In this document: in pieces, positions 1 to 27,546 of the stretch
Layout of the letters: the number at the start of each line of letters is the position of its first letter
How positions within the stretch are numbered: position 1 is the first letter of the stretch
Position numbers and translations under genes: made by a program
Origin: a virus
Lineage: Duplodnaviria; Caudoviricetes
IMG/VR virus record: IMGVR_UViG_3300027969_000041
DNA: 64,000 nucleotides
Direction: 5' to 3' (one strand)
Notes under the pieces: model-generated
The model's input: the letters and a program-made list of their open reading frames with translations, nothing else
Database searches by the model: none
What the model was told of the DNA's origin: nothing

Positions 1-2
1 AC

Positions 3-176
3 TATATACACATATTCAAGTATACAGATTCAGCATGTGCTTATGAGGTATTCACTAGCAGTATAGCGGCAGGTGATTACTTATTAATAGAACCAGACAG
101 TCAGCATTATCGTGTAGTAATAGAAGGTGATACTGCTTGGATGCCTATATATTGCCGGCCTAGTCCTTTCCTATAA
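3..176 (+). CDS. 3' end of a hypothetical protein (partial, runs off window start)
   Basis: Open frame from window edge to TAA 174-176 (YIHIFKYTDSACAYEVF...CRPSPFL); not in ORF track. Confidence 0.4.
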   Translation, partial: YIHIFKYTDSACAYEVFTSSIAAGDYLLIEPDSQHYRVVIEGDTAWMPIYCRPSPFL

Positions 177-245
177 TACTATTAGTGTATTAAGGCGGTT
201 CAAACCATTATCAATTGCTGTATAGAGGCGGGACAGAACCCGCCC

Positions 246-268
246 AAACCCGTTTTATCAACGGGTTT
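246..268. terminator. Perfect 9-bp hairpin (AAACCCGTT-ttatc-AACGGGTTT), possible terminator or cruciform beside the DnaA boxes
   Basis: Inverted repeat read directly from the sequence. Confidence 0.5.
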
Positions 269-274
269 ATATTA

Positions 275-398
275 TGTGGATAAAGCTGTGGATAACTTTG
301 CTTAGGGGCAATGTGAATATCCTGTGCATAACTTTATCTACAGCCCCTTAATCTCTCGCCCAAAAAGTTATCCACAGCTTATACATCAGTTATCCACA
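275..398. promoter_or_regulatory. Cluster of DnaA boxes
   Basis: Perfect TTATCCACA at 275-283(-), 287-295(-), 368-376(+), 390-398(+); TTATGCACA at 323-331(-); near matches at 312-320(-), 334-342(+), 379-387(+). Confidence 0.8.
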
Positions 399-561
399 GC
401 TGAAAACGTGCGCAGCCCCGCCGTCCATCCCCACTATGTTCGAACATGACAGTATTATAACACGTTTCGGGCACAGTGTCAAACGGGCTAGCAAAGACCC
501 TGCTGGCATTGTGGGTATTTTTTTGAGTTGACGTTGTCGCCAAAGTGCGTTATAATACGCT

Positions 562-885
562 ATGATGAAAACAAAACGAACTGCCCGTAAAGACTGCAAC
601 TACGTTATCTACGTAGCCGAGCACAATGGGTCTGCTTACATTGGGCTCACACGTAAGGGAACTGTAAGCATAGCCCGAGCTGTCAAAGAACGGTGGCGTA
701 AGCATATCTCACGTGCAAAGCATGAGGATCGTGCGTGGGAACTGTACAAGTACATCAAATCGGGCAACTGGGACGGATGGACTCATACAGTACTAGACGT
801 CATACGGGGCCGTGCTGAAGCTTATGCATACGAGCGTGAGCTGGTGAAGCATATGGAGCCCGAGCTGAATGACCAGTACCTTTGA
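562..885 (+). CDS. GIY-YIG family nuclease (catalytic domain only)
   Basis: YVIY-x8-YIGLT motif, downstream R (ERWRKH), E (YEREL) and terminal LN; ATG only 5 nt after -10 box. Confidence 0.7.
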   Translation: MMKTKRTARKDCNYVIYVAEHNGSAYIGLTRKGTVSIARAVKERWRKHISRAKHEDRAWELYKYIKSGNWDGWTHTVLDVIRGRAEAYAYERELVKHMEPELNDQYL

Positions 886-952
886 AGGGTTATTGACACA
901 CTCTTCAACAGGTGCTATAATACACACATCAACAACGAAACAGGAGCGAACC

Positions 953-1438
953 ATGTCAAAGAGTCTGATACTGATGAGAGATGTAATCTGCATTTATCAT
1001 CCGCGATTTCAAGTCAGTAAAGATCTTCGTGCGTATGGCATGGAAGCTCCTGATATATTCAACATAGAGCGATTGGTTGAAGAGAGCTTGGCTGCTGTGG
1101 GCCCTTACCGATTTGTGGACGAAGAAGGCTATGACTTCACCGACTTCAGCGACAGCAAGACCACCACAATCAATGCCAACACACGAGTGGGCACAATCAG
1201 CAGTGTGGAAACAAAGATTGGGGCCCTGCGTATCACAGCATACAATCCATTCAAACAGTCAGCTGACTACTTCTACGTCAGCAAGAGAGACATGAAGTAT
1301 GTCAAGAGTCCATGCTATGGCAACAATGATCACAAAGAGCGTATCTTGTTCAAATACAGCTCCAGGAGCGATGCTTACGGCATGTTTGAAGACTACAGGG
1401 TCAAATCGTTTGAGGAACTGGCCCACTCAGCCAGTTGA
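953..1438 (+). CDS. Hypothetical protein, possible PD-(D/E)xK nuclease-like fold
   Basis: Start reassigned to ATG 953 after promoter 893 and AGGAGC; YDFTDFSDSKT resembles D...D-x-K. Confidence 0.55.
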   Translation: MSKSLILMRDVICIYHPRFQVSKDLRAYGMEAPDIFNIERLVEESLAAVGPYRFVDEEGYDFTDFSDSKTTTINANTRVGTISSVETKIGALRITAYNPFKQSADYFYVSKRDMKYVKSPCYGNNDHKERILFKYSSRSDAYGMFEDYRVKSFEELAHSAS

Positions 1439-1494
1439 CACGGGTGCCGTTTGGCGCTATAATACACACATCAACAACGAAACAGGAGCGACGG

Positions 1495-1698
1495 ATGTTT
1501 AGTTCAAATGCACAAGCAGAGTTCAAATGCCTGCTTAAGACCTTCTCCACTGCCAAACGAGCTGAGATGGACACTTGGGCTTTCTCAGCTGGCTACATGG
1601 AGAGCTTGGCGGACTCTATGTTCTATTACTTGCCCAAGCGGGAGCAAAAGGCCTTTCTCAAACAGATGCAAGCCGAAGTTGACAAGATTGCGGCTTGA
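1495..1698 (+). CDS. Early hypothetical protein
   Basis: ATG 1495 after promoter 1435 and AGGAGC. Confidence 0.75.
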   Translation: MFSSNAQAEFKCLLKTFSTAKRAEMDTWAFSAGYMESLADSMFYYLPKREQKAFLKQMQAEVDKIAA

Positions 1699-1736
1699 CT
1701 GTATAATACACACATGAACAACAAAGGAGCGAAACG

Positions 1737-2024
1737 ATGAAGTTTACACAAGCAACATGGACAGAGGCAAACGGCACTCACCTGCAGGGCTATATTAATG
1801 CAACTTACGACCAGTTGGTTGCACGTTTTGGACAACCTGATGAGGGCGGTGACAAGACTACAGTTGAGTGGGTGCTGGCCTTTGCGGATGGCACAATAGC
1901 AACAATCTACGATTGGAAAGAGTATGAGACGCCCATGTACGCTTATGATTGGCACATTGGTGGCAAGAGCAAAACGGCTGTCTCTCGAGTAACACAAGCA
2001 TTGAAACAAGGAGCAACTGTATGA
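1737..2024 (+). CDS. Early hypothetical protein
   Basis: Promoter 1679, AGGAGC RBS; LQGYI...ATIYDWK motif. Confidence 0.8.
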   Translation: MKFTQATWTEANGTHLQGYINATYDQLVARFGQPDEGGDKTTVEWVLAFADGTIATIYDWKEYETPMYAYDWHIGGKSKTAVSRVTQALKQGATV

Positions 2025-2302
2025 AGCAAGACTACACCATGTATATCTACAAGCGGGATGCACGTACCAAAACGGGCGAACGACTGTACAGTACTACTGT
2101 ATGGGCAGACCGTACTGAAGAAGGCATGCGACGTGAGTGCAACGAACTCTATGATCTGTACCCTGCAACCAAAGGTTGGCGTTTTGAGTACGTGCCCTCA
2201 ATGAAGACTGTACGCAACTTGATGTCGGGCAAGGACATTCAAATCCCACATGACACTCCTCGCTCATGTGATCCCTCTAGCGAACTCTACTGGAGCATGT
2301 GA
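2021..2302 (+). CDS. Early hypothetical protein
   Basis: AGGAGC then ATG 2021 overlapping upstream stop (ATGA). Confidence 0.75.
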   Translation: MKQDYTMYIYKRDARTKTGERLYSTTVWADRTEEGMRRECNELYDLYPATKGWRFEYVPSMKTVRNLMSGKDIQIPHDTPRSCDPSSELYWSM

Positions 2303-2466
2303 TGAAGAACGAGATTGAACGTTTGAACTTTGTCATATGGGCCAAGACTCGCTTCCCGGGCTTTACCACAAACGCCCAGCAATATGCCAAGGCCAATCGG
2401 GCATGGCGGGCTGTGGCACGTAAAGACCCTATGGTTGACAAGGTTATTAGAACCTGCTATAATTAA
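2302..2466 (+). CDS. Small early hypothetical protein (54 aa, MKNEIERLNFVIWAK...)
   Basis: GGAG RBS, TGATG coupling with upstream stop; below ORF-track cutoff. Confidence 0.6.
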   Translation: MKNEIERLNFVIWAKTRFPGFTTNAQQYAKANRAWRAVARKDPMVDKVIRTCYN

Positions 2467-2497
2467 GGCTACAGTAAACAACTAAGGAGCGAAACTT

Positions 2498-2704
2498 ATG
2501 CGTAAAGAGACTAACAGACTGTTGGACATGATTGAAGAGGGCTTGATTGATCCTCATGCGGTGGCAGACATGTGCCTTGCTTACATGAGCGAGGACGATG
2601 TGGCAGACATGATGCGGGCTAACGACCTGCTTGAGGAAGATGACGAGGATGACGGACAGCCCGACGAAGCCCAGGAGTGGGAATCGTTTGACGCTGACTG
2701 CTAA
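2498..2704 (+). CDS. Acidic early hypothetical protein
   Basis: Promoter 2435, AAGGAGC RBS. Confidence 0.75.
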   Translation: MRKETNRLLDMIEEGLIDPHAVADMCLAYMSEDDVADMMRANDLLEEDDEDDGQPDEAQEWESFDADC

Positions 2705-2714
2705 GGAGCACACT

Positions 2715-3095
2715 ATGACACGCTATTACGACGAACTGGCTGCTTACGAACGCAACGGATTTGATATCATTGTGGACAAATCATATGAAGACATGGATCC
2801 CAAAGACTGTTTTGATGACGACTGCTTCAACATCAAAGAAATGTATTCCGACATCGAGTGCGGGAACCTTGACTGGTTCATGCTCCGTGTCCGAGTTATG
2901 GTTGAGAACATCGAACTCAGTTCAGAGTTCTTGGGCGGATGCTTATACAAAGACGCCCGAGAAGTACTTACTGACGGGACTGCCGCAGACCTCATCGACC
3001 AAGCGATGGTAACAGCTAAGAAGGATGTCTATAGACTGTATAAGAAGTTCCAGGACATCAGCTGGGAACTTGATGCTGAAGGTTGTAATGTATGA
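2715..3095 (+). CDS. Early hypothetical protein
   Basis: AAGGAGC then ATG 2715 (in frame with track ORF 2631). Confidence 0.75.
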   Translation: MTRYYDELAAYERNGFDIIVDKSYEDMDPKDCFDDDCFNIKEMYSDIECGNLDWFMLRVRVMVENIELSSEFLGGCLYKDAREVLTDGTAADLIDQAMVTAKKDVYRLYKKFQDISWELDAEGCNV

Positions 3096-3328
3096 GCTAT
3101 AGACACATAGACGAAGTCATACAATGGGTAGGGACTGCATTCATCTTGGCAATGTATGCATTAATGAATTTCTTTCCAGAGTTCCGTGTCTACACTATTA
3201 TAACGGGACTCGGGGGTGCAGTCTGTTTCTTTGCGTGGGCCTACCGTGTGGCAAATAAACAACAGATGATTATCAACGGCGTAGCAATAGCCCTATGTGT
3301 GATAGGGTTATACAAAGCGTGGGGTTGA
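3092..3328 (+). CDS. Small membrane protein (about 3 TM segments)
   Basis: Three hydrophobic stretches in 78 aa; ATGA overlap. Confidence 0.7.
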   Translation: MSYRHIDEVIQWVGTAFILAMYALMNFFPEFRVYTIITGLGGAVCFFAWAYRVANKQQMIINGVAIALCVIGLYKAWG

Positions 3329-3359
3329 CAAAGTGGTAAAACCTTGCTATAATTAGCAC

Positions 3360-3586
3360 ATGGACAGTTAGAAAAGAGTTAAAGGTTACCTACACCGTTA
3401 GGGTCTTTAGGAGAGGAGCACAGGGGCCGCCCTACGCAATCCTAGAGAGCATGAAGGCTAGTGATACAGGCAACTGTATACGAGTTTGGCAGACGGGGTA
3501 TGTAGGCTGTAATGACGAAGGCAGATGCCTAGCAGACGGTGCTAGCGTCTAGTCCGGAGTTCCTTTACTCTTTTCTAACTGTCCAT
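3360..3586 (+). ncRNA. Unclassified structured ncRNA of about 227 nt
   Basis: Own promoter (3325/3348) with expected TSS at about 3360; no RBS-led ORF; 5' end 3360-3385 pairs with 3562-3586 (25 bp, one bulge); internal stems including a GCAA tetraloop hairpin. Confidence 0.75.
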
Positions 3587-3647
3587 TAGGGGTTGACAAT
3601 ATGGTAAAACCATGTTATAATATACACTTACACACTAAGGAGCAAAG

Positions 3648-3902
3648 ATGATCACAGCAGACACTATCGAAGTCCTAACTGCATATTCACCACAATACTT
3701 GACCAAAGCCGCACAGCTTGCAGGCTACAAGGGTCCAAACTTCACAGCGTGTAAGTTCCTGGGCATCACCAACGGTGGCCAGTTCTGCTACATGGCAGTC
3801 TTTCCAGTCAAAGGCGGCACCGACAGCACCAAAGTGTTCTTAAGCTATGACCATGATGAGGACAGGGTTATTGCAGACTACCAGTTGACAGAATGGGCAT
3901 AA
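3648..3902 (+). CDS. Early hypothetical protein
   Basis: Promoter 3593, AAGGAGC RBS. Confidence 0.8.
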   Translation: MITADTIEVLTAYSPQYLTKAAQLAGYKGPNFTACKFLGITNGGQFCYMAVFPVKGGTDSTKVFLSYDHDEDRVIADYQLTEWA

Positions 3903-3944
3903 GCTGTTATAATACATACATCAACAACGCACTAAGGAGCAACT

Positions 3945-4211
3945 ATGCAAGCACTAGCAAAGTTTATCGAGCAGAAGAATCACTGGAACAGTTTCTTTAA
4001 AGGCGAGCAGTATGAGATCACTACTGCCAAGGGTCGTCAGCGTGTTGCAGACATGATCGATGCCGCACTGAGCCCTGAGAACCTTACCTGCGATGGCGAA
4101 CTGCCCCGCACAGAAGTTAATCGTCGCTACAAAGAGTTGATGACTGCCGCCAAGCAACTGCGGAAGTTAGACCCTACTGTTAAGTTCTACGAATACGACA
4201 CGGAGATCTAA
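3945..4211 (+). CDS. Early hypothetical protein
   Basis: Promoter 3885, AAGGAGC; LSPENLTCDGEL motif. Confidence 0.8.
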   Translation: MQALAKFIEQKNHWNSFFKGEQYEITTAKGRQRVADMIDAALSPENLTCDGELPRTEVNRRYKELMTAAKQLRKLDPTVKFYEYDTEI

Positions 4212-4212
4212 G

Positions 4213-4374
4213 ATGAAAACAGCACACCCTAAACAAGAGCTGATAGATCGCGTTATCTATCAAATACAATGTGACTTGGAAGACAAAGACACCACCTCCA
4301 TCGAAGAGATGCTGTGGAAACTTAACGAAGAAACCCTTCGTGCCTACTTGCCCGAAGCTGACCCATTTATCTAA
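4213..4374 (+). CDS. Small early hypothetical protein (53 aa, MKTAHPKQELIDRV...)
   Basis: GGAG upstream, fills the gap exactly; below ORF-track cutoff. Confidence 0.6.
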   Translation: MKTAHPKQELIDRVIYQIQCDLEDKDTTSIEEMLWKLNEETLRAYLPEADPFI

Positions 4375-4384
4375 GGAGAATAGA

Positions 4385-4960
4385 ATGCCTAATTGGTGCA
4401 ACAACACATTGACGCTGGAACACGAAGACCCAGCAATGATCGCCCGTGCTAAGGCTGCGTTCCTCAATGGTCGCTTGCTGGCGGAGTTCATTCCTATTCC
4501 GGCAGACTTGAAGATCGTAGCAGGATGTGTAGGTGATCCTGTAGAACAGGCCAAGTTGGTAGAACAGACTGAGTTGAACCGAGTCACACACGGCTACGGC
4601 AACTGGTATGACTTCTGTGTCAACGAATGGGGTACCAAGTGGGATGTGGGTGGGGACGATGGTGTCCTCAACGACATCGAAAGCGGTATCATTGTCAGCT
4701 TCGACAGTGCCTGGGCCCCTCCTACTAATGCCTATGAGAAACTGCATGAGATGGGCTTTAAGATCCTTGCTATGTATTACGAGCCCGGCATGGCCTTTGC
4801 AGGTGTTTGGGAAGACGGCATTGATGACTACTACGAGTATGGCGGCCTAGACAGTGCAGGCATTGCTGAAGAACTGCCGTCAGCACTTGACGAGGCGTTT
4901 GGCATCAGTGAGAGTGTGGCGGAGTGGGAAGCTGAGAACGCAGAGGAAGAGGAAGAATAA
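4385..4960 (+). CDS. DUF1281/YubB-like ferredoxin-fold protein
   Basis: AAGGAG then MPNWCNN start; NWYDFC...WGTKWDV, FDSAWAPP, YYEPGMAFAG motifs. Confidence 0.7.
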   Translation: MPNWCNNTLTLEHEDPAMIARAKAAFLNGRLLAEFIPIPADLKIVAGCVGDPVEQAKLVEQTELNRVTHGYGNWYDFCVNEWGTKWDVGGDDGVLNDIESGIIVSFDSAWAPPTNAYEKLHEMGFKILAMYYEPGMAFAGVWEDGIDDYYEYGGLDSAGIAEELPSALDEAFGISESVAEWEAENAEEEEE

Positions 4961-4964
4961 CCCT

Positions 4965-4982
4965 AAGCCCGGAAGGGCTTTT
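4965..4982 (+). terminator. Intrinsic terminator-like hairpin
   Basis: AAGCCC-ggaa-GGGCTT plus TT directly after stop. Confidence 0.55.
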
Positions 4983-5041
4983 GGTTGCTCGTTTTGTAAA
5001 AGTTTGCTATAATACATACTTGTTTAACAGGAGCACACACT

Positions 5042-5485
5042 ATGCAAGCACTTAACGCACAAACTGTACAGCAGTTTATTGAATATACAGAAGACGGCTT
5101 TAATTTTGAGATAGTTGTTGATAAAACATTTACTACAGCAGGCGACGGCTTGTGGAGTAGCATTAGCAAAGCAGTATTTGTTGAAAGTATTAGTATGTTT
5201 ATTAGTACAGTTAATGATGAAGGCGATTTTTACGACGGCGATTTAGCTATTAACTATACAAACGCTACATGGGATAATGATGTAGACGGATTAATTTATA
5301 CTGACAGAGCATTTATTGCACAAGTACATGCATTTTTAATTAATGCGGGCTTTGATAATGAAGCTGTTAATGCTATTAGTTATAGCGAACAAGGAATGCA
5401 AGACGACGAGCGTGTTAGTTGCGACGCTAACGAGTTTGCAGATTATTTGCGTAATATTAGCAACGCTAAAATTACTGTTGTGTAA
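5042..5485 (+). CDS. Early hypothetical protein, proline-free, encoded without any TC/CC dinucleotide
   Basis: Promoter 4985/5008, AGGAGC RBS; DGLIYTD and YSEQGMQ motifs; about 36% GC. Confidence 0.85.
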   Translation: MQALNAQTVQQFIEYTEDGFNFEIVVDKTFTTAGDGLWSSISKAVFVESISMFISTVNDEGDFYDGDLAINYTNATWDNDVDGLIYTDRAFIAQVHAFLINAGFDNEAVNAISYSEQGMQDDERVSCDANEFADYLRNISNAKITVV

Positions 5486-5494
5486 AAACAACAC

Positions 5495-5521
5495 AAAGAC
5501 CCTACACAGCGTAGGGTCTTT
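5495..5521 (+). terminator. Stem-loop between gene end and next promoter
   Basis: AAAGACCCTA-cacagcg-TAGGGTCTTT, perfect 10-bp stem. Confidence 0.65.
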
Positions 5522-5579
5522 GGTTGACAGAATGGTAAAACCGCTGTATAATTAGCACATACACTAAAAAGGAGCAACT

Positions 5580-5840
5580 ATGTTAGATCTAAGCAGAGTC
5601 TACAAAGTTTACAACGGCCGGGCCAACTCTTGTTGCTGTGGCTGTTCGGGCAAGTATGCCACAGCGTTGGTCCACAAGGCCTATGCTGACCAAGACAGGG
5701 GCTATGTTGTTGACGATGTCAACGATGAGACTGTACGCAAGATCGTAGGCAAGATCCTAAGTGCCGCTGATCCCAAGGACGAGGGCGATCATGTCCACGC
5801 AACTGTAGGCAAAAGATTGTTGGTCGCTTACTACAAATAA
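5580..5840 (+). CDS. Early hypothetical protein with Cys cluster (SCCCGCSG)
   Basis: Promoter 5524, AAGGAGC RBS. Confidence 0.8.
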   Translation: MLDLSRVYKVYNGRANSCCCGCSGKYATALVHKAYADQDRGYVVDDVNDETVRKIVGKILSAADPKDEGDHVHATVGKRLLVAYYK

Positions 5841-5906
5841 TGGTTGACAACATGGTAAAACCATGTTATAATTAACACTTACACAGCAACACACTAGGAG
5901 CACAAA

Positions 5907-6389
5907 ATGGGAACACGAAGCACTATTGCATTGGAATTCGCAGACAAGTCAGTTGAGCAGGTCTACTGCCACTGGGACGGCTACTTGGAGCACAACGGTC
6001 AACTCTTGTTGAAACATTATAGCAACCCTTTCATCTTGCGTGACTTGATCGACTTGGGAGACATTAGCTCGCTCAAGCCCACAGTTGGTACCAAGCACGC
6101 CTTTAGTCACTTTGACACAGAGATGAAGCAAGAGGAATACGATGCTCTCTACAGAGATATGACTACCTTCTACGGACGCGATCGCGGCGAGACAGGTTGC
6201 GAGTCTAAGAAGTTTGTTGACTTCCAGGACTACCTGGCTCATCACCAGTACGAGGAATACGAGTACATCCTGCGTCAAGTCAACGGGGAGGCTGTTTGGT
6301 ATGTTAAGTGCCACGACAACGAGTATGTTACATTGAAGTCTGCAATCGCAGACGAACAAGATCAAATTGCACAAGAGGAGACAGTATGA
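5907..6389 (+). CDS. Early hypothetical protein
   Basis: Promoter 5844, AGGAGC; MGTRS...VYCHWDGY motif typical of phage early hypotheticals. Confidence 0.8.
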   Translation: MGTRSTIALEFADKSVEQVYCHWDGYLEHNGQLLLKHYSNPFILRDLIDLGDISSLKPTVGTKHAFSHFDTEMKQEEYDALYRDMTTFYGRDRGETGCESKKFVDFQDYLAHHQYEEYEYILRQVNGEAVWYVKCHDNEYVTLKSAIADEQDQIAQEETV

Positions 6390-6568
6390 GCAAGATGGCA
6401 GAACTGAGTTACGATATGGAGCAACTGTACATTGAAGGCATGAGTGCCAAACAGATTGCTCAAGAGTTGATGTGCCCAATAGAATTGGTATTGGGCTTTT
6501 TGGAAGAACTGGGTGTGGCAGATTCGCCACAGGAGGTGTTTGATCCATTCGAAACAATCAACTCTTAA
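6386..6568 (+). CDS. Early hypothetical protein, possible HTH-like
   Basis: GAGGAG then ATG 6386; GMSAKQIAQELMCP. Confidence 0.65.
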   Translation: MSKMAELSYDMEQLYIEGMSAKQIAQELMCPIELVLGFLEELGVADSPQEVFDPFETINS

Positions 6569-6663
6569 CCCAAAAAACGGTTGACACCACCGTCCAAAGG
6601 TGTTACAATTAATTAATGCGAAAAAGTTCGCAGGTACACACAGACTAACACAAAGGAAATTTT

Positions 6664-7068
6664 ATGTCTAAATCTTTTACACATGCTGGCGTTTCTAAAC
6701 TGGACGGCGAGTTCAAAGTCCGTTTCGCCAATGACTCACTTCGTACTAAGGTCTTGATCAAGAACGGTCACACTGACATCGACATCATCGAACTCAAACA
6801 CGCTATGACCAAGGAAGATGCTGTTGCATTCCTGATCAGCATTGACTTCGACAACGGCAACGCCGCTGTGCGAGCTGCACTAGAAGTAGAAGTTGACAAG
6901 CGTTCACCTAAAGCTGCTTCTAAGGACAAGCCTAAGAAGGAAGCTAAGAAGCCCAAGAAGGCTCCTGCCACTAAGCCTACCTTGGAAGCTATCCGCGCCA
7001 AGGCTCCTACTAAGTCCAAGGCTGAGATTGTTGCTCAGTTGGCTGACTTGGAAGACGCACCTTACTGA
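6664..7068 (+). CDS. Hypothetical protein with Lys/Ala/Pro-rich C-terminal tail
   Basis: Promoter 6581/6604, AAAGGA RBS; strongly biased codons. Confidence 0.8.
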   Translation: MSKSFTHAGVSKLDGEFKVRFANDSLRTKVLIKNGHTDIDIIELKHAMTKEDAVAFLISIDFDNGNAAVRAALEVEVDKRSPKAASKDKPKKEAKKPKKAPATKPTLEAIRAKAPTKSKAEIVAQLADLEDAPY

Positions 7069-7146
7069 TCCCCTGCAGTGTGCGTAGCGGCAGTGCCAAT
7101 AAGTCCGCTTCGATAAAACCTACTGCGGGGTATTCAAGGAAACACT

Positions 7147-7338
7147 ATGAGCGAACTAATTAAAATCATTCTTATTGTTGTACTGGTCATCTTACTGCTG
7201 ATCTTTGGGCCGATTGCAACCATCTGGGCACTCAATACATTATTCCCAGTACTGGCTATCCCTTACACCTTTGACACCTGGTGTGCAATAGTTCTTGTAG
7301 GTGCCTTCCTTAGAGCAAATGTTACGGTGAAAAAATGA
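7147..7338 (+). CDS. Small membrane protein
   Basis: AAGGA RBS; two hydrophobic segments. Confidence 0.7.
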   Translation: MSELIKIILIVVLVILLLIFGPIATIWALNTLFPVLAIPYTFDTWCAIVLVGAFLRANVTVKK

Positions 7339-7553
7339 GTAGACTACAATTACACGGAAGACAATGGGTTGTGTTCAACGCCCAAAACAAAGAACATCGT
7401 CAATGGTTTGCCGAGTTCAATCGTACAGCCAAATGGGGCAACTGTCCTGTTCGCTTTGTGGTCAACGATGATCACGGTGATCTGATCACACAGATCCAAC
7501 GAGAGTTGATTGCTCACTATGTGGGCAAAGAATTTGGCAAATTTAATCATTGA
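7335..7553 (+). CDS. Early hypothetical protein
   Basis: ATGA overlap with upstream gene. Confidence 0.7.
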   Translation: MSRLQLHGRQWVVFNAQNKEHRQWFAEFNRTAKWGNCPVRFVVNDDHGDLITQIQRELIAHYVGKEFGKFNH

Positions 7554-7622
7554 CCTAGATTAGATATAGTGTTAAACTAGTATCAACTGCTAACACAGTA
7601 TAAAACAAAAAGGAAAACTAAA

Positions 7623-7895
7623 ATGGTTTATTCAATCAACAAGGGTACAAAGACCCACAAGTTGTTCACCGCATTAAAGAACGGTGAGAAGGTCACAGCT
7701 AGCGAAGCATCTAAGCGTTTTGGCATCGGCAACATCGCCGCTGAAGCAAGCCGCATTCGTCAAGCTGGTTTTGCAGTCTATGCGAACAGCCGCACCGCTG
7801 GCAACGGCGTTCAAGTTACCGAGTACGAAATCGGTCAACCAAGCCGTGCAATCGTAGCCGCTGGCTACCGCGCAATGCAACTCGGCCTAGTCTAA
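7623..7895 (+). CDS. Winged helix-turn-helix-like DNA-binding protein
   Basis: Own promoter (TTGACC/TGnTAAACT); VTASEASKRFGIGNIAAEASRIRQAG helix pattern followed by a beta hairpin. Confidence 0.6.
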   Translation: MVYSINKGTKTHKLFTALKNGEKVTASEASKRFGIGNIAAEASRIRQAGFAVYANSRTAGNGVQVTEYEIGQPSRAIVAAGYRAMQLGLV

Positions 7896-8062
7896 GAGTT
7901 CGCTCCGAAGTCCTGGGGGTAGTGTCCCAGGCAACCCCCCGAACCCCGCCCATCGTGAGATGCGTGGGGTTCACCTTTGTTGTAAAAATACAACACCAAA
8001 AGGGGTTGACACTTTGGTAAAACCTCTGTATAATAGAGACTTACACTAACAAGGAGCCGAGC

Positions 8063-8275
8063 ATGGGATATCGCGTAATGGACACCGTAGACATGATGCG
8101 TGACAAGTATGGTCCCCGCAAGGGACTGGAAGGTCCGTTCAACTTCTCCGGTCGTGTTCTGTACTACGATGTCAAGGAAGGTCTGTACTACGACCCGACC
8201 ACAGACTTCTATGTTGAGAAGTCTGAGATGGACATGATCAACTCATCCTTTATGGAGCGTTTCAAGAATGTATGA
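8063..8275 (+). CDS. Early hypothetical protein
   Basis: Promoter 8006, AAGGAGC; GLEGPF...VLYYDVKEGLYYDP. Confidence 0.8.
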   Translation: MGYRVMDTVDMMRDKYGPRKGLEGPFNFSGRVLYYDVKEGLYYDPTTDFYVEKSEMDMINSSFMERFKNV

Positions 8276-8465
8276 TGTGACCATCAACTGTGCCAACGAA
8301 CTGAATCCTCTAGAGGTATTGATCGTTGCCGACCACTATGAGAAGCGTGGGATCAAGTCCTACACCATGACCAAGGGCAATGATTGCATCTGGTGCTACC
8401 GTGGCAACATCAACGAATATTTCATCTTCCGTGAAGGAAAATTGGTTGACATCCAGGTCGATTGA
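8268..8465 (+). CDS. Early hypothetical protein
   Basis: GGAG upstream, overlaps previous stop. Confidence 0.7.
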   Translation: MYDVTINCANELNPLEVLIVADHYEKRGIKSYTMTKGNDCIWCYRGNINEYFIFREGKLVDIQVD

Positions 8466-8508
8466 TCGTATAATACATACATAGACAGCAACACACTAGG
8501 AGCACATA

Positions 8509-8874
8509 ATGGAAACAATGACACGCCGGGAAGAACTAGAGTGCATCTTCTGGGATATGTACAAGGATGCCTACGGTGTCCGCCCACGTGGTGTCGACAC
8601 ATCTGCTTGGGATGAGGCTACCTTTGAAGCCGAGTTCAACTATATGCAGGAGCTGATTGCCAAGAACGACCGTGAGCGCAAGATCGCCGAGGACGAGGCA
8701 GCACATGCCTTTGAGATGCGAATGTTGAGCATCATAGCCTGCGGTGCTCATAATCGTGCTATGGCCCTGCGTTGGATCCACGAGGCAGAAGGTAGCAACG
8801 GTGACGACGAGTACCTGTGCTATCTGTTGGGATTGCCCTACCGCTATTTTGTGGTTGACAAGGCCACAGTTTGA
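8509..8874 (+). CDS. Early hypothetical protein
   Basis: Promoter 8446, AGGAGC; DMYKDAYGVRPR motif. Confidence 0.8.
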   Translation: METMTRREELECIFWDMYKDAYGVRPRGVDTSAWDEATFEAEFNYMQELIAKNDRERKIAEDEAAHAFEMRMLSIIACGAHNRAMALRWIHEAEGSNGDDEYLCYLLGLPYRYFVVDKATV

Positions 8875-8907
8875 CAGTATAATACACACATAGACACTAA
8901 GGAGCAC

Positions 8908-9132
8908 ATGATGATTAGAGAGCATATTCAAATGGAAACCCGCCACGGTAGCCCATACGATCGCGGCATGGCAGACAGCTACTACCGTAGAGACTACAAC
9001 CCACACTATTTTAAGGGTGATTCTTACAGTTCAGAGCGTGTCACTCTTAAGGATATGACACCTGATGAGATTGTGGCATACACCGCAGGCTACGAGGACA
9101 ACGAAGACGCCGGCGATCACAAGGAGTGGTAA
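8908..9132 (+). CDS. Early hypothetical protein
   Basis: Promoter 8855, AAGGAGC; RHGSPYDRGMADSYY motif. Confidence 0.8.
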   Translation: MMIREHIQMETRHGSPYDRGMADSYYRRDYNPHYFKGDSYSSERVTLKDMTPDEIVAYTAGYEDNEDAGDHKEW

Positions 9133-9133
9133 G

Positions 9134-9292
9134 ATGAGTACATGGGAATTCGCAGAGTTCCGCATTGGACGACTGTTCCATTGCAACGGCAACGACTGGA
9201 TCAAACAATCAACCCGCACCGCAAGGATGCTGAGCACGGGTAGAGTCTTCTACTTCCGTAAGAACGAAATCATTAGGGCAATCGCATGGTAA
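9134..9292 (+). CDS. Small early hypothetical protein
   Basis: AAGGAG then ATG 9134. Confidence 0.65.
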   Translation: MSTWEFAEFRIGRLFHCNGNDWIKQSTRTARMLSTGRVFYFRKNEIIRAIAW

Positions 9293-9480
9293 TCCTACAA
9301 GAGACCACACAGTGGAGCGACAGCAACGGCGCCAACCACATCTATGTCTTTAAGAAGAAGCCCGAAGGTCGGAGTGCCGAGGCTGTGGCTTATTTGCCAC
9401 AAGGGACAGATCGTGTGATCAAGTTCCGCACACCACTAAAACTCGACCTAAAAGGAAGGACTTTCCGGGCGGTTGACTAA
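9286..9480 (+). CDS. Early hypothetical protein
   Basis: Overlaps previous gene; ends inside next -35 box. Confidence 0.65.
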   Translation: MVILQETTQWSDSNGANHIYVFKKKPEGRSAEAVAYLPQGTDRVIKFRTPLKLDLKGRTFRAVD

Positions 9481-9526
9481 TTGGTAAAACCTTGCTATAA
9501 TACACTATCGCAACAAGGAGCACACT

Positions 9527-9607
9527 ATGTCAGATTTTGAAGCAGGCTGTATTTTGGTTTCAGTGATCATTGCCGCTAAATTTTACATCCTCATCAGATA
9601 CTTCTAA
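9527..9607 (+). CDS. 26-aa hydrophobic microprotein (MSDFEAGCILVSVIIAAKFYILIRYF)
   Basis: Promoter 9473/9496 and AAGGAGC RBS; not in ORF track. Confidence 0.65.
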   Translation: MSDFEAGCILVSVIIAAKFYILIRYF

Positions 9608-9617
9608 GGAGCACACT

Positions 9618-9704
9618 ATGCCACAAGCTATTATCAACCTTCTCATTATGTTGACGCCAGTATGGGTCATGCTCGTAGCAATCCTTGTAGAGGAGATCCT
9701 GTAA
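9618..9704 (+). CDS. 28-aa hydrophobic microprotein (MPQAIINLLIMLTPVWVMLVAILVEEIL)
   Basis: AAGGAGCACACTATG RBS module; stop overlaps next ATG. Confidence 0.65.
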   Translation: MPQAIINLLIMLTPVWVMLVAILVEEIL

Positions 9705-9919
9705 TGGACATCGAAATCAAATTCAAAACCGACGAACAGAGACGCATTGCAGACCTACTGTGGTCTTGCCAAAGCCAGGCAGAAGTCAATGTGGTGCTCC
9801 GTGCCTTTGGGGTGCAAGGCTACATTGTCAAAGAGATGATCTTGGCCGCTACCTACGATGACTTAGCCAATGAAGATGTGGCGTTAGCACAACACTATCT
9901 AAAACCCTACATGTTGTAG
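9704..9919 (+). CDS. Early hypothetical protein
   Basis: GAGGAG and TAATG coupling; start reassigned to 9704. Confidence 0.7.
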   Translation: MDIEIKFKTDEQRRIADLLWSCQSQAEVNVVLRAFGVQGYIVKEMILAATYDDLANEDVALAQHYLKPYML

Positions 9920-9985
9920 GGGTTCTAGTTGACATCTTTATAAGTTGAGACTATAATACATACATACACTAAAAAGGAGTTAAAA

Positions 9986-10231
9986 ATGGGTCAATACGCA
10001 AACACAGTTAACGCATACGCAATGTCTGCCGCTCGTGCTAAAGTTTACACTATGCAAAACACTTTGCAAAGTTACGGACAAACCGCTTACATGCTAAATG
10101 TAAGTAGTGCTAAGTTCCGCCGGGACATCGAAGCTAAAAAAATTAAATTTATTGCACAGCTCGAAAAAGAAAAAATTGCAAAAATGCAAGCAGAGATCGC
10201 TAGTCTGCAAGCAAAGCACAGTGTAGCATAA
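9986..10231 (+). CDS. Early hypothetical protein with C-terminal coiled coil, proline-free
   Basis: Promoter 9929, AAGGAG RBS. Confidence 0.75.
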   Translation: MGQYANTVNAYAMSAARAKVYTMQNTLQSYGQTAYMLNVSSAKFRRDIEAKKIKFIAQLEKEKIAKMQAEIASLQAKHSVA

Positions 10232-10324
10232 AAACAACGACCCTACGGGGTCTAGGGTTTTTGGTTGACAGAGTAGTAAATCGGCGTTATAATACATACA
10301 CACTAACACAAAAGGGAGCGATAG

Positions 10325-10711
10325 ATGACTAAAGTAAATTATGACCGTTTTGCCTCGTTTGACATGAACGAGTGCTGTGACCACTTTGACAGTGAGAAGC
10401 AGAGCAACTGGAAGAAGATTGGCAAGTTCATCGTAGCAGATGGACAAGAGTACCAGCACATTATGGAAACAGAGTTTGACTTTGAAGACACGGGCGATGG
10501 CGAGTATGCGGCATTTGACGCAGGCGTTAAGTATGCTCTTACTAAGATGAACATTGCATTTGAGGCGGCAGGCTTGGACTTGCAGATCTGCGAGGTAGAC
10601 CTGGTAGAGAGCATGGGCTTTGTTATGGTCCGTGCAGACGACGAGCCCGAGGACTTCGTTAAGCGGGTTCTTAAGAAGCCCGTGTTGATGGTAGAGAGCT
10701 GGATAGACTAA
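10325..10711 (+). CDS. Acidic early hypothetical protein
   Basis: Promoter 10265, GGGAGC RBS. Confidence 0.8.
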   Translation: MTKVNYDRFASFDMNECCDHFDSEKQSNWKKIGKFIVADGQEYQHIMETEFDFEDTGDGEYAAFDAGVKYALTKMNIAFEAAGLDLQICEVDLVESMGFVMVRADDEPEDFVKRVLKKPVLMVESWID

Positions 10712-10847
10712 TTGCCGGAGTGTCAGCTCCTGCCACTAGGCCCTGCAACAACTGTCCCAAGTGGACGGTATCGCCCGGGTACTTCGCAGGGGTTGACACA
10801 ATGGTTTTTCTATGTTATAATACACACATAGACACTAAGGAGCATAT

Positions 10848-10991
10848 ATGAAACAAGTACAGAGCAAATCCAGCACCGGTGGCACCACTACCGAGTTCTT
10901 CGATGAGAACGGCGTTCGCGTCAAAGTAGTCCACAGTGCCGGCAAACAGTACAGTGGCAAGATTGCACAACAAGAAGCCAAAAAGGCTTGA
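10848..10991 (+). CDS. Small early hypothetical protein (47 aa, MKQVQSKSSTGG...)
   Basis: Promoter 10793, AAGGAGC RBS; stop is inside next TTGACA; not in ORF track. Confidence 0.65.
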   Translation: MKQVQSKSSTGGTTTEFFDENGVRVKVVHSAGKQYSGKIAQQEAKKA

Positions 10992-11043
10992 CAAACCGGT
11001 AAAACCTTGTTATAATACATACTTACACACTAAGGAGCACACT

Positions 11044-11397
11044 ATGACAGCAGTCGCAACACACATCACAGAGCAGTTGGTACAAGACGCTACCAACGAA
11101 GCTCGCATCCAAGCCCATACAGCGGCCAAAGCCTTGATTGCCCAGCATGGCGATCGTGGCGCCTGCGGCTTTGCCTGGGTCAACATCTACGGTGTTCGCA
11201 GTAACAGCAAGTTGGGCAAGTGGCTACAGGCCGCAGGCTTCCGCAAAGACTACACAGGTGCATTGAGCCTGTGGAACCCCAGCCAAGCCGCAGTACAAAG
11301 CATTGACATTCTGGAAGCTGGCGCCTATGCCTACGCAGAGGTCATCAAAGCCAAGTTGGGCTTGGACAAGGTCTACGCTGGTTCAAGAATGGACTAA
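11044..11397 (+). CDS. Early hypothetical protein
   Basis: Promoter 10988, AAGGAGC; GACGFAWV motif. Confidence 0.8.
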   Translation: MTAVATHITEQLVQDATNEARIQAHTAAKALIAQHGDRGACGFAWVNIYGVRSNSKLGKWLQAAGFRKDYTGALSLWNPSQAAVQSIDILEAGAYAYAEVIKAKLGLDKVYAGSRMD

Positions 11398-11476
11398 TTA
11401 TAGAGCAGAAGGGCTTGACATACAGGCCCTTCGACTGTATAATACATACTTCAACTTAAACACCAAGGAAGCAAAA

Positions 11477-12349
11477 ATGGCTACAACAAAGACCAAAGCC
11501 CCCAGCAAGGGCACCACAGTACTAGAATTTGACACGGATGCTATCAAGCGCCGTGAAAAGGAAGTAGCCAAAGAGACTGACGGCGAGATCCTGGATCGTC
11601 TCAGCGAGCGGTTTGATATCCTCAACGAGATGACCAAAGCAGTCAAAGAAGGCAATGTCCGTGCTATGATTGTATCAGGTCCCCCAGGCGTGGGCAAGAG
11701 CCACGGTGTAGAAGCTGTACTCCAAAAGGCAGACTTGTTCAACACACTAGCAGAGCGCAAGCCCAAGTTTGAAGTTGTCAAGGGTGCCATGAGCAGTATT
11801 GGCCTCTATGCTAAGTTGTACGAGTTCGCCGCAGAAGGCAATGTTGTAGTCTTTGATGACTGCGACAGTATCCTCATGGAAGACCTAAGCCTAAACATTC
11901 TCAAGGGTGCCTTGGACAGTAGTGAGCGCAGGTTTATCAGTTGGAACACTGACAGCCGACTACTCCGTAGTGAAGGCATTCCAGATCGCTTCGAGTTCAA
12001 GGGCGCGGCTATTTTCATTACCAACATCAAGTTTGAGCACGTTAAGAGCAAGCGCCTCCGTGATCACTTGGATGCCTTGGAAAGCCGTTGCCACTACATT
12101 GATCTGCAAATGGATACGAATCGCGAGAAGATTCTGCGTATCAAGCAGGTTGTCAACGCTGGTGAGATGCTGAGCAAGTACGAGTTTGAAGAGTGTGTCA
12201 AGGACGAGATCGTTGAGTTTGTGGACGCTAATCAAGACAAGCTTCGTGAGCTGAGTCTGCGTATGGTGCTCAAGGTAGCACAATTGCGTAAGGCGTTTCC
12301 TACCACATGGAAGAGCATGGTCAAGACTACCTGTATGAAGCGAGCATGA
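11477..12349 (+). CDS. AAA+ / P-loop ATPase
   Basis: Walker A GPPGVGKS, Walker B VVFDDCD, FITN sensor, ALESRC arginine finger; promoter 11415. Confidence 0.85.
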   Translation: MATTKTKAPSKGTTVLEFDTDAIKRREKEVAKETDGEILDRLSERFDILNEMTKAVKEGNVRAMIVSGPPGVGKSHGVEAVLQKADLFNTLAERKPKFEVVKGAMSSIGLYAKLYEFAAEGNVVVFDDCDSILMEDLSLNILKGALDSSERRFISWNTDSRLLRSEGIPDRFEFKGAAIFITNIKFEHVKSKRLRDHLDALESRCHYIDLQMDTNREKILRIKQVVNAGEMLSKYEFEECVKDEIVEFVDANQDKLRELSLRMVLKVAQLRKAFPTTWKSMVKTTCMKRA

Positions 12350-12579
12350 TCACTCGCATAGTACTGTATGCAACCCTAGGGTATCTATTAGATGCTCTAG
12401 GGCAGGGTTCCGGAGACTGGGGCTTTTGGTGTGTCTTGGGCTTGTTCCTAGCCACAGACATCCTAGCCCGCAAGGAAGGACAGGATCACGGCATATGGAT
12501 AACACTGATGTTGCCCGCTGACAGGCTCGCAGAGCTTAAACAACAACTAGACACAGACATCAAGGATGCAGAACAATGA
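12346..12579 (+). CDS. Small membrane protein
   Basis: ATGA overlap; hydrophobic N-terminal half. Confidence 0.65.
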   Translation: MITRIVLYATLGYLLDALGQGSGDWGFWCVLGLFLATDILARKEGQDHGIWITLMLPADRLAELKQQLDTDIKDAEQ

Positions 12580-12842
12580 CTACAACAACTACAACCTGCA
12601 CCTACTTGGGCAACAGTACTACAGCCTGCGGCTGTACTACAGTCATGGGCAAGAGCTACTGTGCAGAGCACATATACATAGTCTACAAGCAGGGTACAGC
12701 CCGGGCCAAGCGTAAGAAGGAACTAACCACTGTGGACAAGGTACGCATGGTAGAAGAACTCATGCACGAAGCTATCGCAGAGCTGGAAGCAGAAGGCTTT
12801 GATGTCTACGGTGAAAGAGAGTTGGACCTAGACAGAGGCTGA
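12576..12842 (+). CDS. Hypothetical protein with Cys/His Zn-binding-like motif
   Basis: CTY...ACGC...YCAEH. Confidence 0.65.
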   Translation: MTTTTTTCTYLGNSTTACGCTTVMGKSYCAEHIYIVYKQGTARAKRKKELTTVDKVRMVEELMHEAIAELEAEGFDVYGERELDLDRG

Positions 12843-13034
12843 GGTCGGGGCCGGTGGGGTGGTCAGGTACAATGCAAACTACTGTACATACATACAGTAG
12901 CAAGCATGCCTTAAAAAGTCGGTGTTAGAGTAGATCACCATGGCCAGAGATCTCCAAACCCTACAATTTTTACGCAGCAATTTTTTGGCTACAGTAGACC
13001 AGATTTTGACCCACTGTATTATCACTGTGCGAGT

Positions 13035-13361
13035 TTACTCTGCTGTGAGTTTAATACGAGTGGCTCGCTTTGGTTTTGCTACCGGCTCTACAGCTTCTAA
13101 CTGCTGTGTCGGTGCCACGGGCATTGTTACAAAATTATCCGATTCACCTCTTACAGCTTGATTCAGCATTGATACCACGTGATCAAAGCTTTCACTGACT
13201 TCCCATGTACCGTGTGGTGGACAGAACACAAAAGTCACTGTTTCCACTGTACCTTCTTCACGAGTCACTACTGTACTGTGTACTGTGACCACGTGCTCAC
13301 TGTTGATAGCGATGTTATTCCCTCTATGCTGTGGGCTAGCGTTGGTTAGTTTAATATACAT
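13035..13361 (-). CDS. Hypothetical protein, weak FlbD-like resemblance
   Basis: Start reassigned to ATG 13361, 6 nt after TTGACA(13396-13391)-N17-TATACT(13373-13368). Confidence 0.65.
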   Translation of the reverse strand: MYIKLTNASPQHRGNNIAINSEHVVTVHSTVVTREEGTVETVTFVFCPPHGTWEVSESFDHVVSMLNQAVRGESDNFVTMPVAPTQQLEAVEPVAKPKRATRIKLTAE

Positions 13362-13648
13362 GCTATTAGTATACACTGTGAAAAACTTCATGTCAACTAA
13401 ATTTCCATGGTTTGAAAATTTTTTTATATATTTTTTACTCTTACAAGGGGTCATTTTAATCATAGTGTAATCATACTGTGTTATACTCTATTAACTACTG
13501 TGAGAACTCACTGTTGAAAAAATCATTTTTTACCGCGTCGCGCTTCGCGCTAGTTGGCTCTTCTGCACCAAAAATCTGGTTTTATCAATATCTGGGTACT
13601 TTATTTAATTTTTAGATAAGTACGGTTATACCACCCTCGAAAGCTATC

Positions 13649-14092
13649 ATGTCACTATTACACGTTATACAGAGCCTAACTGATCCACTGTGCTCTTTAA
13701 TCACAGATGATCCCGTACGACCCGAGATCCCTCTAGAGTTTCGAGTTAGCTCATCCAGTGAGATATTTGTGTTGTTAGATGAACTCAGTTTGGCGCCCTT
13801 GGCTGCGGTCTGCTGTGCTTATAGAGATAGTATTCCCGAAAACACCGCCGATTTGATCTTACAACCCCTGGCGGCTGGTGTGGCTGTGTTTTATACTATA
13901 TGGAGTTATCAACCCGGGGCTGGACGCAGGTTGATTGTCTCTGCTCGGAATTGGATCCAGCTCAATAGAACTGAGATCACTAAATTTGTCACTTTGAGTC
14001 CGCCCACTGACATGGCCCGTGTATTCCACCTACGCAATGGTGCGGAAGTGTTTCGAGTTAACAGCGATACAGTTAACTATCTCTACCCTTGA
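13649..14092 (+). CDS. Hypothetical protein, possible GNAT-like fold
   Basis: FYTIWSYQPGAGRRLI (motif A-like) and TLSP...ARVFHLRNGA. Confidence 0.55.
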   Translation: MSLLHVIQSLTDPLCSLITDDPVRPEIPLEFRVSSSSEIFVLLDELSLAPLAAVCCAYRDSIPENTADLILQPLAAGVAVFYTIWSYQPGAGRRLIVSARNWIQLNRTEITKFVTLSPPTDMARVFHLRNGAEVFRVNSDTVNYLYP

Positions 14093-14606
14093 GCTCTACC
14101 AGTATAGACAGCAGTTCATCTAGGCCAGCTTGATAGTTCTGGCTCAGTATACGAACTGCTCGCTGACCGGTCGCGGTCCATTGTTCACAGTTACTACTGC
14201 GATCATCTACTAATATGTCACCGTTGCGGGCATGTTTGTACTTGTCCGTTGAGTAGGGTCCAAAACACAGTCTAATGCCCGGGTAGTGTTCGGCCATCCA
14301 ATCAAACTTGTCCTGAAATACCTCGGGCACTTCGTTTTTTGTGGGTATGGCCGTTAATATGCGTAGGTCCCAACCTAGTTCATTTTTGAATCTATAGGCC
14401 AAGTTGACCAGTTCATCAGCCAGGGGCATCTTGGGTAAGTGGCGATAAAAGTTCGGAACATCTACCAGCTTGTGCCAGCTGTGCTCGGGCCAGCGGCCAT
14501 TTTGTTCTGCATCTTTTTCATCGGCCTTGCTGGCGTTTAGGTAACTGCGAGCAGCCGTGTTAAAGTCGGCCAGGACGCCATCCATGTCTAGGTAAATTGT
14601 GGGCAT
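14073..14606 (-). CDS. HAD-family 5'(3')-deoxyribonucleotidase
   Basis: YLDMDGVLADF, ILTA, ILVDDR motifs. Confidence 0.85.
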   Translation of the reverse strand: MPTIYLDMDGVLADFNTAARSYLNASKADEKDAEQNGRWPEHSWHKLVDVPNFYRHLPKMPLADELVNLAYRFKNELGWDLRILTAIPTKNEVPEVFQDKFDWMAEHYPGIRLCFGPYSTDKYKHARNGDILVDDRSSNCEQWTATGQRAVRILSQNYQAGLDELLSILVELKGRDS

Positions 14607-15301: not shown

Positions 15302-15335
15302 AGCTGTGTATTTATGTGGTTAAATATCATTAGTT

Positions 15336-27294: not shown

Positions 27295-27546
27295 TTAGTC
27301 CTCGTCTTCACCGTAGTCGTAATCTTCTTCGTCGATGTCATCATCTTCGTCTTTGTTTTCGTCAATGACTAATTGGATTGCATCATCTAAATGGGTATCG
27401 TAACCCATTAATCCTTCAAGTACCGATAACTCAACATCTTTGCCGATAAGGAAATCAACATAGTGATTGGCTGCGGTTTCTTTGTTTTTATCAGATACAT
27501 ATTCTCGAAATGTATCCCATACTTCAATGATTAGATCTTCTTCCAT
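27295..27546 (-). CDS. Acidic hypothetical protein
   Basis: Coupled between uvsX and uvsY. Confidence 0.7.
   Translation of the reverse strand: MEEDLIIEVWDTFREYVSDKNKETAANHYVDFLIGKDVELSVLEGLMGYDTHLDDAIQLVIDENKDEDDDIDEEDYDYGEDED

Follow-up and report, generated by a model that had tools for sequence, protein, structure and literature searches.

The eight DnaA-type boxes found at positions 275 to 398 of the window (the whole 64,000-nucleotide stretch of phage DNA analysed here) are well supported, judging by their sequence grammar and their conservation, as genuine and selected sites in a lytic phage that carries its own replisome, and host DnaA very probably binds them. The explanation that we put forward as the best one, tentatively, is that they form a platform on which host DnaA would act in cis on the early control region, either as a roadblock or as a regulator. 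The array would be a high-affinity loading platform for host DnaA, made of double and triple boxes in two arrays that face each other, and would lie inside the non-coding leader of a leftward promoter of consensus strength (PL), with a bidirectional terminator on its far side. DnaA oligomers assembled there may constitute a protein roadblock or a regulator for the PL transcript, and may also act as a barrier separating the upstream gene from the early operon, which would couple an early phage event to the amount and state of host DnaA.

Within the 124 bp, four boxes are perfect matches to TTATCCACA and four are near-consensus, and the 275-398 span given for them in the initial annotation was confirmed. 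On the left, an outer double box consists of two perfect TTATCCACA sites with a 3-bp gap (275-283 and 287-295, − strand), followed by an inner double box of ATATTCACA (312-320) and TTATGCACA (323-331), also on the − strand and separated by 2 bp. The orientation of the array flips at a one-mismatch box, TTATCTACA (334-342, + strand), a position occupied by a perfect TTATCCACA in the relatives L109 and L110. The right end is a triple box on the + strand, TTATCCACA (368-376), TTATACATC (379-387) and TTATCCACA (390-398), with 2 bp between neighbours, in which the TTATACATC box is weak, having two mismatches to TTATNCACA. The division described earlier, with four boxes on the − strand to the left and four on the + strand to the right, is thus correct. 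Overall, the 124 bp contain five matches to TTATNCACA, six boxes with at most one mismatch from TTATCCACA, and a perfect 17-nt inverted repeat (283-299 / 364-380). Perfect TTATCCACA sites number exactly four in the whole 64-kb window, where 0.88 would be expected by chance, and all four fall within 275-398, bearing out the earlier remark that no further perfect box was noticed. Since chance alone predicts about 0.0017 perfect boxes in 124 bp, the probability of four in one 124-bp span is roughly 1e-8 window-wide.

The arrangement of the boxes follows the grammar of DnaA binding. The same-strand gaps inside the pairs and the triple of the window are 3, 2, 2 and 2 bp, and across the arrays of the relatives 19 of the 32 gaps between adjacent same-strand boxes measure 2 or 3 bp. 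In vivo, E. coli DnaA binds mainly to pairs 2 or 3 bp apart, as determined by ChIP and mutagenesis, and one added base pair between paired boxes breaks the binding (PMC11317965). The flanks of the phage boxes favour A at −3 and −2, G at −1 and G at +1 (AAG-box-G), and the identical preference was present in 1473 perfect boxes of bacterial oriC-type loci. A search for DnaA domain IV (PF08299) gave no hit in five relatives, four of them with a completeness of at least 93% and one represented by a partial record, suggesting that the ligand would be the DnaA of the host.

Regarding the identity of the phage, its large terminase shares 55% identity with the protein of Pseudomonas phage PA5oct, other jumbo myoviruses being more distant. 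The window encodes a DnaB/gp41-like helicase (15884-17362), a primase (17355-18353) and a UvsX-like recombinase (27546-28613), as well as a T4-type tail sheath and a gp15-like protein. The gp41, gp61 and UvsX set listed by the initial annotation was therefore found, while its description of a T4-like phage holds only distantly, the terminase placing the genome among PA5oct-like jumbo myoviruses. A nucleotide search with window positions 1-3000 against catalogued phages returned no match, near or distant, and the public runs that contain the sequence are freshwater metagenomes. Together with the terminase kinship, this points to an uncultured freshwater jumbo phage.

To the left of the array lies the C-terminal end of a small gene (3-176, + strand; 79 aa in the close relative L110), which is kept across the relatives with the motif IFKYN..C.YE.F and converges on a terminator. 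A GC-rich hairpin, GGCGGG-N6-CCCGCC (227-244), forms part of this bidirectional terminator, which separates the upstream gene from the leftward transcript, and is followed by a terminator-like 9-bp hairpin, AAACCCGTT-N5-AACGGGTTT (246-268), the one that had been described beside the boxes and that is confirmed at this position. Because the latter is preceded by an A-run and followed by a T-run, it could terminate transcription from both sides. Upstream of the 79-aa gene, L110 carries an AACCG(T/A)TAAATAC(T) motif (L110:2835-2875, TATAAGTAC), also present in L117, L119, L133, L137 and L140, which is similar to TATAAATA, the consensus of T4 late promoters; late expression is thus conceivable for this upstream gene, and the cluster might lie at a boundary between late and early genes.

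To the right of the array, PL (482-454, − strand) matches the sigma-70 consensus at 12 of 12 positions, TTGACA-17 nt-TGn-TATAAT, with an extended −10 element, and is a feature absent from the initial annotation. It sits between the array and the first rightward early promoter (PR), pointing into the array, and its −10 and −35 elements are retained in most relatives. From a predicted start near 447, its transcript would run leftward across all eight boxes to the bidirectional terminator, over about 200 nt, and no ORF was found downstream of PL in this transcript. The array accordingly occupies about +49 to +172 of a non-coding leader, the right triple box ending at about +49 and 24 nt from a conserved leader element, CCGTCCAYCCCCACTATGTTCGAACATG (421-448, − strand). 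This element, which includes the palindrome GTTCGAAC, gives the predicted leftward RNA its G-rich 5′ end; its consensus in the window and L109-L147 is GTCCAYCCCC-N-GTTCGAAC. It is retained in both box-bearing and box-less relatives, even at 60% protein identity, and a 4-nt length difference within the element of L128 argues against coding. It has no coding frame and matches no Rfam family; it may serve as an operator covering the transcript start or as a G-rich RNA start prone to R-loops.

PR itself (528-556, + strand; TTGACG-17-TATAAT, 11 of 12 matches) lies directly downstream of a terminator-like hairpin with a T-run (499-523, + strand) and 130 bp downstream of the array, in agreement with the early promoter previously placed next to the boxes. 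The first early gene begins with an ATG at 562 (562-885, + strand, 107 aa), and its product shows a weak GIY-YIG-like match that, at 21.3 bits, stays below the cut-off of 22.6. The array borders an early block with many sigma-70 promoters. This block of small genes is richer in G+C than the rest, with 46% in window positions 1-16000 versus about 38% in 16000-64000, and 55-57% in the early block of a complete relative (G001, 120-140 kb) versus about 47% elsewhere. The proposal of the initial annotation that the boxes sense host DnaA for early transcription gains some support through the leftward PL, but not through the first rightward promoter.

To follow the array among relatives, the product of the first early gene was used as the anchor; 379 IMG/VR contigs encode a relative of it, and 80 of the 379 were fetched. 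With an earlier anchor, the gene at 11303-12349, the loci of 80 relatives stop about 1-2 kb short of the site, and the absence of clusters there is therefore uninformative. L109 and L110, which come from different metagenomes and show 95% protein identity, carry the same cluster in the same flanks, with five perfect boxes and seven with at most one mismatch, and in the 108-kb contig of the closest relative five of the six perfect boxes fall in this one cluster. Further arrays were found at the same site, between the terminator of the upstream gene and the leader element, in L120 and L147 (two boxes each), L121 and L122 (three on the − and two on the + strand), L129 (two and two), L130 (four and two) and L132 (ten boxes in a single orientation). 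The number of boxes in box-bearing relatives therefore ranges from 2 to 10, and their orientation varies. Many other relatives, with 60-84% identity, retain the scaffold without boxes, and no cluster was found in PA5oct, the nearest cultured relative, or at this site in two near-complete relatives of 322 and 332 kb. A tree built from the anchor protein, whose short length limits the resolution, scatters the contigs with boxes over at least four separate positions.

Where present, the boxes are better conserved than their surroundings. When three cluster pairs were pooled, 18 of 153 box positions had changed versus 103 of 332 spacer positions (odds ratio 3.4, P = 3e-6), and in the cleanest pair, L121 and L122, the figures were 3 of 45 and 32 of 107. 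Between the window and L109 only two box elements changed, both placing L109 nearer to the consensus. Taken together, these comparisons indicate that the array is real and maintained, yet optional among the relatives, and the initial annotation's concern that the cluster might lack conservation is answered by its retention in them. The same data bear on whether the segment is an assembly artefact or a captured piece of host oriC, a chimera that the initial annotation had considered and that the grammar shared with bacterial oriC loci might suggest. The identical cluster lies within the same phage flanks in two independent contigs from separate IMG/VR metagenomes (L109 and L110), diverged versions occur in at least six more, and a unitig of a public run, possibly the source sample and made up of short contigs, covers positions 1-447 without a difference. 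As the relatives likewise yielded neither a dnaA gene nor a DnaA domain, the sequence data effectively refute this origin of the segment, and we consider its probability negligible.

The position of the boxes relative to the leader element is fixed. A distance of 23-25 nt separates the element from the end of the nearest box pair in the window, L109, L121, L122, L129 and L132, and L132 keeps this distance although its nearest pair has the reverse orientation. Relatives without boxes have a TTAGT-N-ACTAA palindrome whose end lies 25-26 nt from this element. L130 and L147 carry both, and in them the palindrome holds the slot while the boxes are displaced outward to 46 and 81 nt, respectively; the nearest box of L120 is 86 nt from the element, on the far side of a comparable inverted repeat left unscored by the scan. 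Since either a double box or a palindrome occupies one position about 49 bp into the PL leader, the slot looks like a protein-binding site, although the palindrome could be an RNA hairpin instead. Such a pattern would be expected of a protein acting on a passing or paused polymerase, or on the role of the PL transcript.

The array as a whole might serve a role independent of DnaA, either through another phage or host protein that reads the same 9-mer or as a long hairpin in the leftward RNA. The predicted leftward RNA folds at −83 kcal/mol (z = −4.8) and the 17-nt inverted repeat is perfect in the window; this strong fold arises because the arrays are inverted repeats. In L132, whose ten boxes share one orientation, a hairpin is impossible, which counts against an RNA role, and the 17-nt repeat is not preserved in L109, unlike the boxes. 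A different protein ligand is at variance with the consensus, flanks and 2-3 bp pairing, all of which are DnaA-like. A comparison with Rfam yielded nothing at the gathering threshold, the best hit being at chance level (E = 0.87). We regard a role independent of DnaA as very unlikely.

The cis-acting platform for host DnaA agrees with a box enrichment far above chance, with a PL promoter that matches the consensus at every position and carries the TG, and with a slot fixed across six lineages. It also has parallels among the E. coli promoters regulated by DnaA (Stringer et al. 2024, PMC11317965), in which a pair 2-3 bp apart is the binding unit, and among transcription blocks at DnaA boxes, for which a position downstream of the promoter, as here, is suitable. 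We infer from this layout that PL would fire and that bound DnaA might block or modulate the resulting transcription. The E. coli regulated promoters use one pair, whereas the window has three to four pairs in two opposed arrays; eight boxes so arranged exceed the use made of them by known DnaA-regulated promoters. In addition, the opposed design resembles that of chromosomal origins beside dnaA, the left arrays reach more than 100 bp past the slot, which would be needless for a simple roadblock, and a regulatory role leaves the purpose of the PL transcript unexplained.

The closest known counterparts to the array are in the T5-like phages. These have about eight DnaA boxes in the non-coding part of the first-step-transfer region, as pairs 3 bp apart and in inverted repeats, laid out as IRC-spacer-IRD between divergent pre-early promoters and as IRD′-spacer-IRC′ in the injection stop signal, and boxes were present in all 25 T5-like phages compared (10.1101/866236). 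In the T5 sequence, the region between the divergent pre-early promoters contained boxes at 6121 and 6194, and the annotated injection stop signal contained pairs at 9437-9518; one T5 pair, TGTTGATAAGTCTGTGGATAACTTA, is nearly identical to a pair of L109. Both phages are virulent, have their own replication genes, and carry about eight boxes, half consensus and half near-consensus, as inverted pairs spaced by 2-3 bp, in non-coding DNA heading or bordering their earliest transcription units. The phages differ in that T5 has two sets about 3 kb apart, while here the boxes form one compact 124-bp cluster, lie in a promoter leader at a fixed distance from a conserved element, and are optional among relatives. 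No homology to T5 was found, the phage being related to PA5oct and the resemblance being limited to the box grammar. By analogy, the array appears to be the same kind of element as the DnaA-box arrays of T5-like pre-early control regions.

Davison proposed that membrane-bound DnaA stops the injection of T5 DNA (10.1101/866236), and in the same manner membrane-associated DnaA might catch the array and pause or tether the entering genome at the border of the early region. The comparable arrays that border the pre-early genes of T5-like phages (10.1101/866236) and the position of the present array beside a sigma-70-rich early block are in line with this idea. The T5 model is itself still a proposal (PMC10644984), however, and many relatives are without boxes, so that we find an entry or anchoring element quite unlikely.

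Arrays of this design are common in bacteria. A strict version of the pattern (a pair, 55-85 nt, and a pair in the opposite orientation) is present in at least 120 bacterial species, and in 49 bacterial loci that carry it a dnaA-like ORF lies at a median distance of 190 bp, four being confirmed as DnaA by Pfam. As the pattern recurs beside dnaA, the design of the array is that of a chromosomal origin. On the top strand, the left boxes read TGTGGATAA and the right boxes TTATCCACA, as R1 and R4 do, with the 11-12 bp phasing and the flank preferences of bacterial oriC. In contrast to bacterial oriC, the array lies in a transcribed phage promoter leader and has no AT-rich element, trios or IHF site. 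In the window, the richest 30-bp flanks reach 77% and 70% AT, and seven of eight relatives have 57-80%, compared with a median of 90% for 106 bacterial loci that share the box pattern, and no AT-rich unwinding element was found flanking the array of the window. The basal unwinding rule requires three or more DnaA-trios (NAN, consensus 3′-GAT-5′) within about 16 bp after tandem boxes (PMC8287927); a run of three by this rule, (.A.){3,}, was absent on both outer flanks, with at most two consecutive trios in frame. No IHF site was found inside the array with the E. coli consensus WATCAANNNNTTR, and one-mismatch hits occurred only at 256 (in the hairpin) and 369 (overlapping a box). GC skew, computed for the window and the complete 322-kb relative, tracks gene orientation and marks no origin, so the skew inflection that the initial annotation proposed to look for gave no origin signal at the array and simply follows transcription. 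With unwinding element, trios and IHF site missing, and with boxes that are patchy and variable, a self-sufficient oriC-type origin unwound by DnaA appears unlikely. The DnaA-assisted origin suggested by the initial annotation keeps the support of its opposed, oriC-like arrays, but has against it the same three missing elements and the fact that sister phages are often box-less.

In IMG/VR, the strict four-box pattern was present in only ten contigs, two of them close relatives and eight belonging to two unrelated viral groups. One group comprises L328, L330, L331, L333 and L334 (7-26 kb) and the other L329, L332 and L336 (95-162 kb), in which one contig is complete with terminal repeats; both have denser arrays, with up to about 16 boxes in an 11-bp phase and alternating orientation, and 100 nt of the L332 array match non-coding DNA of a gokushovirus record at 79%. 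A mobile cassette shared with such contigs (L328, L330, L333 and others) was considered and rejected: only the boxes and their immediate flanks align, the spacers do not, and there is no protein similarity. We read this confined similarity as convergence on DnaA grammar. A second cluster in the contig of L122 (L338:6440-6520) was not counted, since it lies inside a 102-aa gene and encodes Tyr-Pro-Gln repeats; its three perfect TTATCCACA sites, two of them 3 bp apart, are in the gene of a small secreted-looking protein and could reflect chance or dual use.

In T4, oriF and oriG follow an established design in which a promoter is combined with a downstream opening and the transcript forms an R-loop primer. 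A first-round origin of this type, assisted by DnaA, would use the PL RNA as the R-loop primer, with DnaA bound at the slot and on the opposed arrays stalling RNA polymerase or stabilising the opening, and with the phage helicase and primase following. In common with T4 oriF (uvsY) and oriG (gene 34), the phage has a strong promoter with no coding role and a T4-type helicase, primase and UvsX. The T4 origins differ in having a middle-mode promoter, an easily melted element and no DnaA, while the DNA downstream of PL is GC-rich and then box-rich. Such an origin would account for a strong PL that serves no ORF, and the first 40 nt or so of its RNA are G-rich and conserved, which would favour an RNA-DNA hybrid. 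It would also fit the opposed-array design so common beside dnaA in bacteria, the location of the region near the switch between leftward and rightward gene blocks in L110, and the zone with four CCCCGCTGT-type iterons and DnaA-like boxes that relatives carry about 600 bp upstream. The AT-rich flank, the DnaA-trio run and the IHF site are all missing, however, and GC skew marks nothing at the array; sister lineages are box-less, box number and orientation vary, and PA5oct is without a cluster. We consider a DnaA-assisted R-loop origin doubtful.

In its most specific version, which is rather doubtful, the origin would be gated by DnaA. The gene-less promoter would supply a G-rich primer, a protein in the slot about 49 bp downstream would stall the polymerase, and the hybrid would prime the first round of T4-type replication, the slot protein being DnaA here, on a double box with the opposed arrays behind it, and a palindrome-binding protein in the sister phages. 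If this were true, the phage would read the initiation potential of its host and time its own replication without an unwinding element.

Farther upstream, a second non-coding zone precedes the small gene in L110 (L110:1970-2650, about 300-1000 bp upstream of window position 1), with counterparts at L105:2400-2760(−), L107:3540-3900(−) and L067:2490-2900. It contains three to four (A/G)CCCCGCTGT/A iterons at a spacing of about 30-230 bp, followed by DnaA-like boxes, and in L067 it includes 11-bp-phased TGTGNNNNN 9-mers with one perfect GCTGTGGATAACTT; the zone is followed by a strong promoter and a tRNA gene in some relatives. From its sequence, the zone looks like an iteron-type origin or control region. 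The TTTTCCAC-type motifs of L105 and L107 had been candidates for host-specific variants of the cluster, and were dismissed because L110 assigns them to this separate upstream iteron zone. Two other observations concern the neighbourhood. A conserved, ORF-less stretch of about 200 nt beside a tRNA-Met gene (GGGCTCATTATCGAGAGATAATAGGAATAA...; L105:2000-2180(−) and L106:12330-12540(+)) looks like a structured RNA and has no Rfam match at the gathering threshold. In L110:176-1447(−), the opposite strand carries a run of four to five small paralogues that share FAELIVREC and a C-terminal HFGVEE/L.

The remaining alternative is a sink of the datA or DnaA-box-cluster type, in which the array would titrate or inactivate host DnaA, with an effect that grows with the number of phage copies, and host initiation would be shut off. 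Like datA and the B. subtilis DnaA-box clusters, the array is a multi-box, high-affinity cluster without an unwinding element. Its optional presence and its variable number and orientation would fit an accessory function of the dosage type, and so would the concentration of nearly all perfect boxes of the closest relative's 108-kb contig in this one cluster. A sink is harder to reconcile with about eight sites per genome and one genome copy early in infection, and it leaves the fixed distance to PL and the alternative palindrome in the slot unexplained. Furthermore, datA requires a defined box set and an IHF site for the hydrolysis of DnaA-ATP, and the array has no IHF site by the E. coli consensus. 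A DnaA sink is possible, without specific support, and we hold it to be unlikely.

A lytic phage that encodes a complete replisome would not be expected to depend on the initiator of its host. DnaA-box arrays are nonetheless found in the earliest control regions of virulent phages, in T5 according to the literature and in the jumbo phage described here. The array is a variant of a kind of element that is already known and unexplained, and its value lies in the series of box-bearing and box-less phages at one slot. To the known cases it adds a phage family, its metagenomic relatives numbering in the hundreds, where gain or loss of the array occurs at one precisely defined slot, a direct physical link between the array and the leader of a consensus promoter, and a clear negative for origin-type unwinding elements. 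The use of DnaA by virulent phages thereby becomes testable, with the relatives that have boxes and those that do not serving as natural controls.
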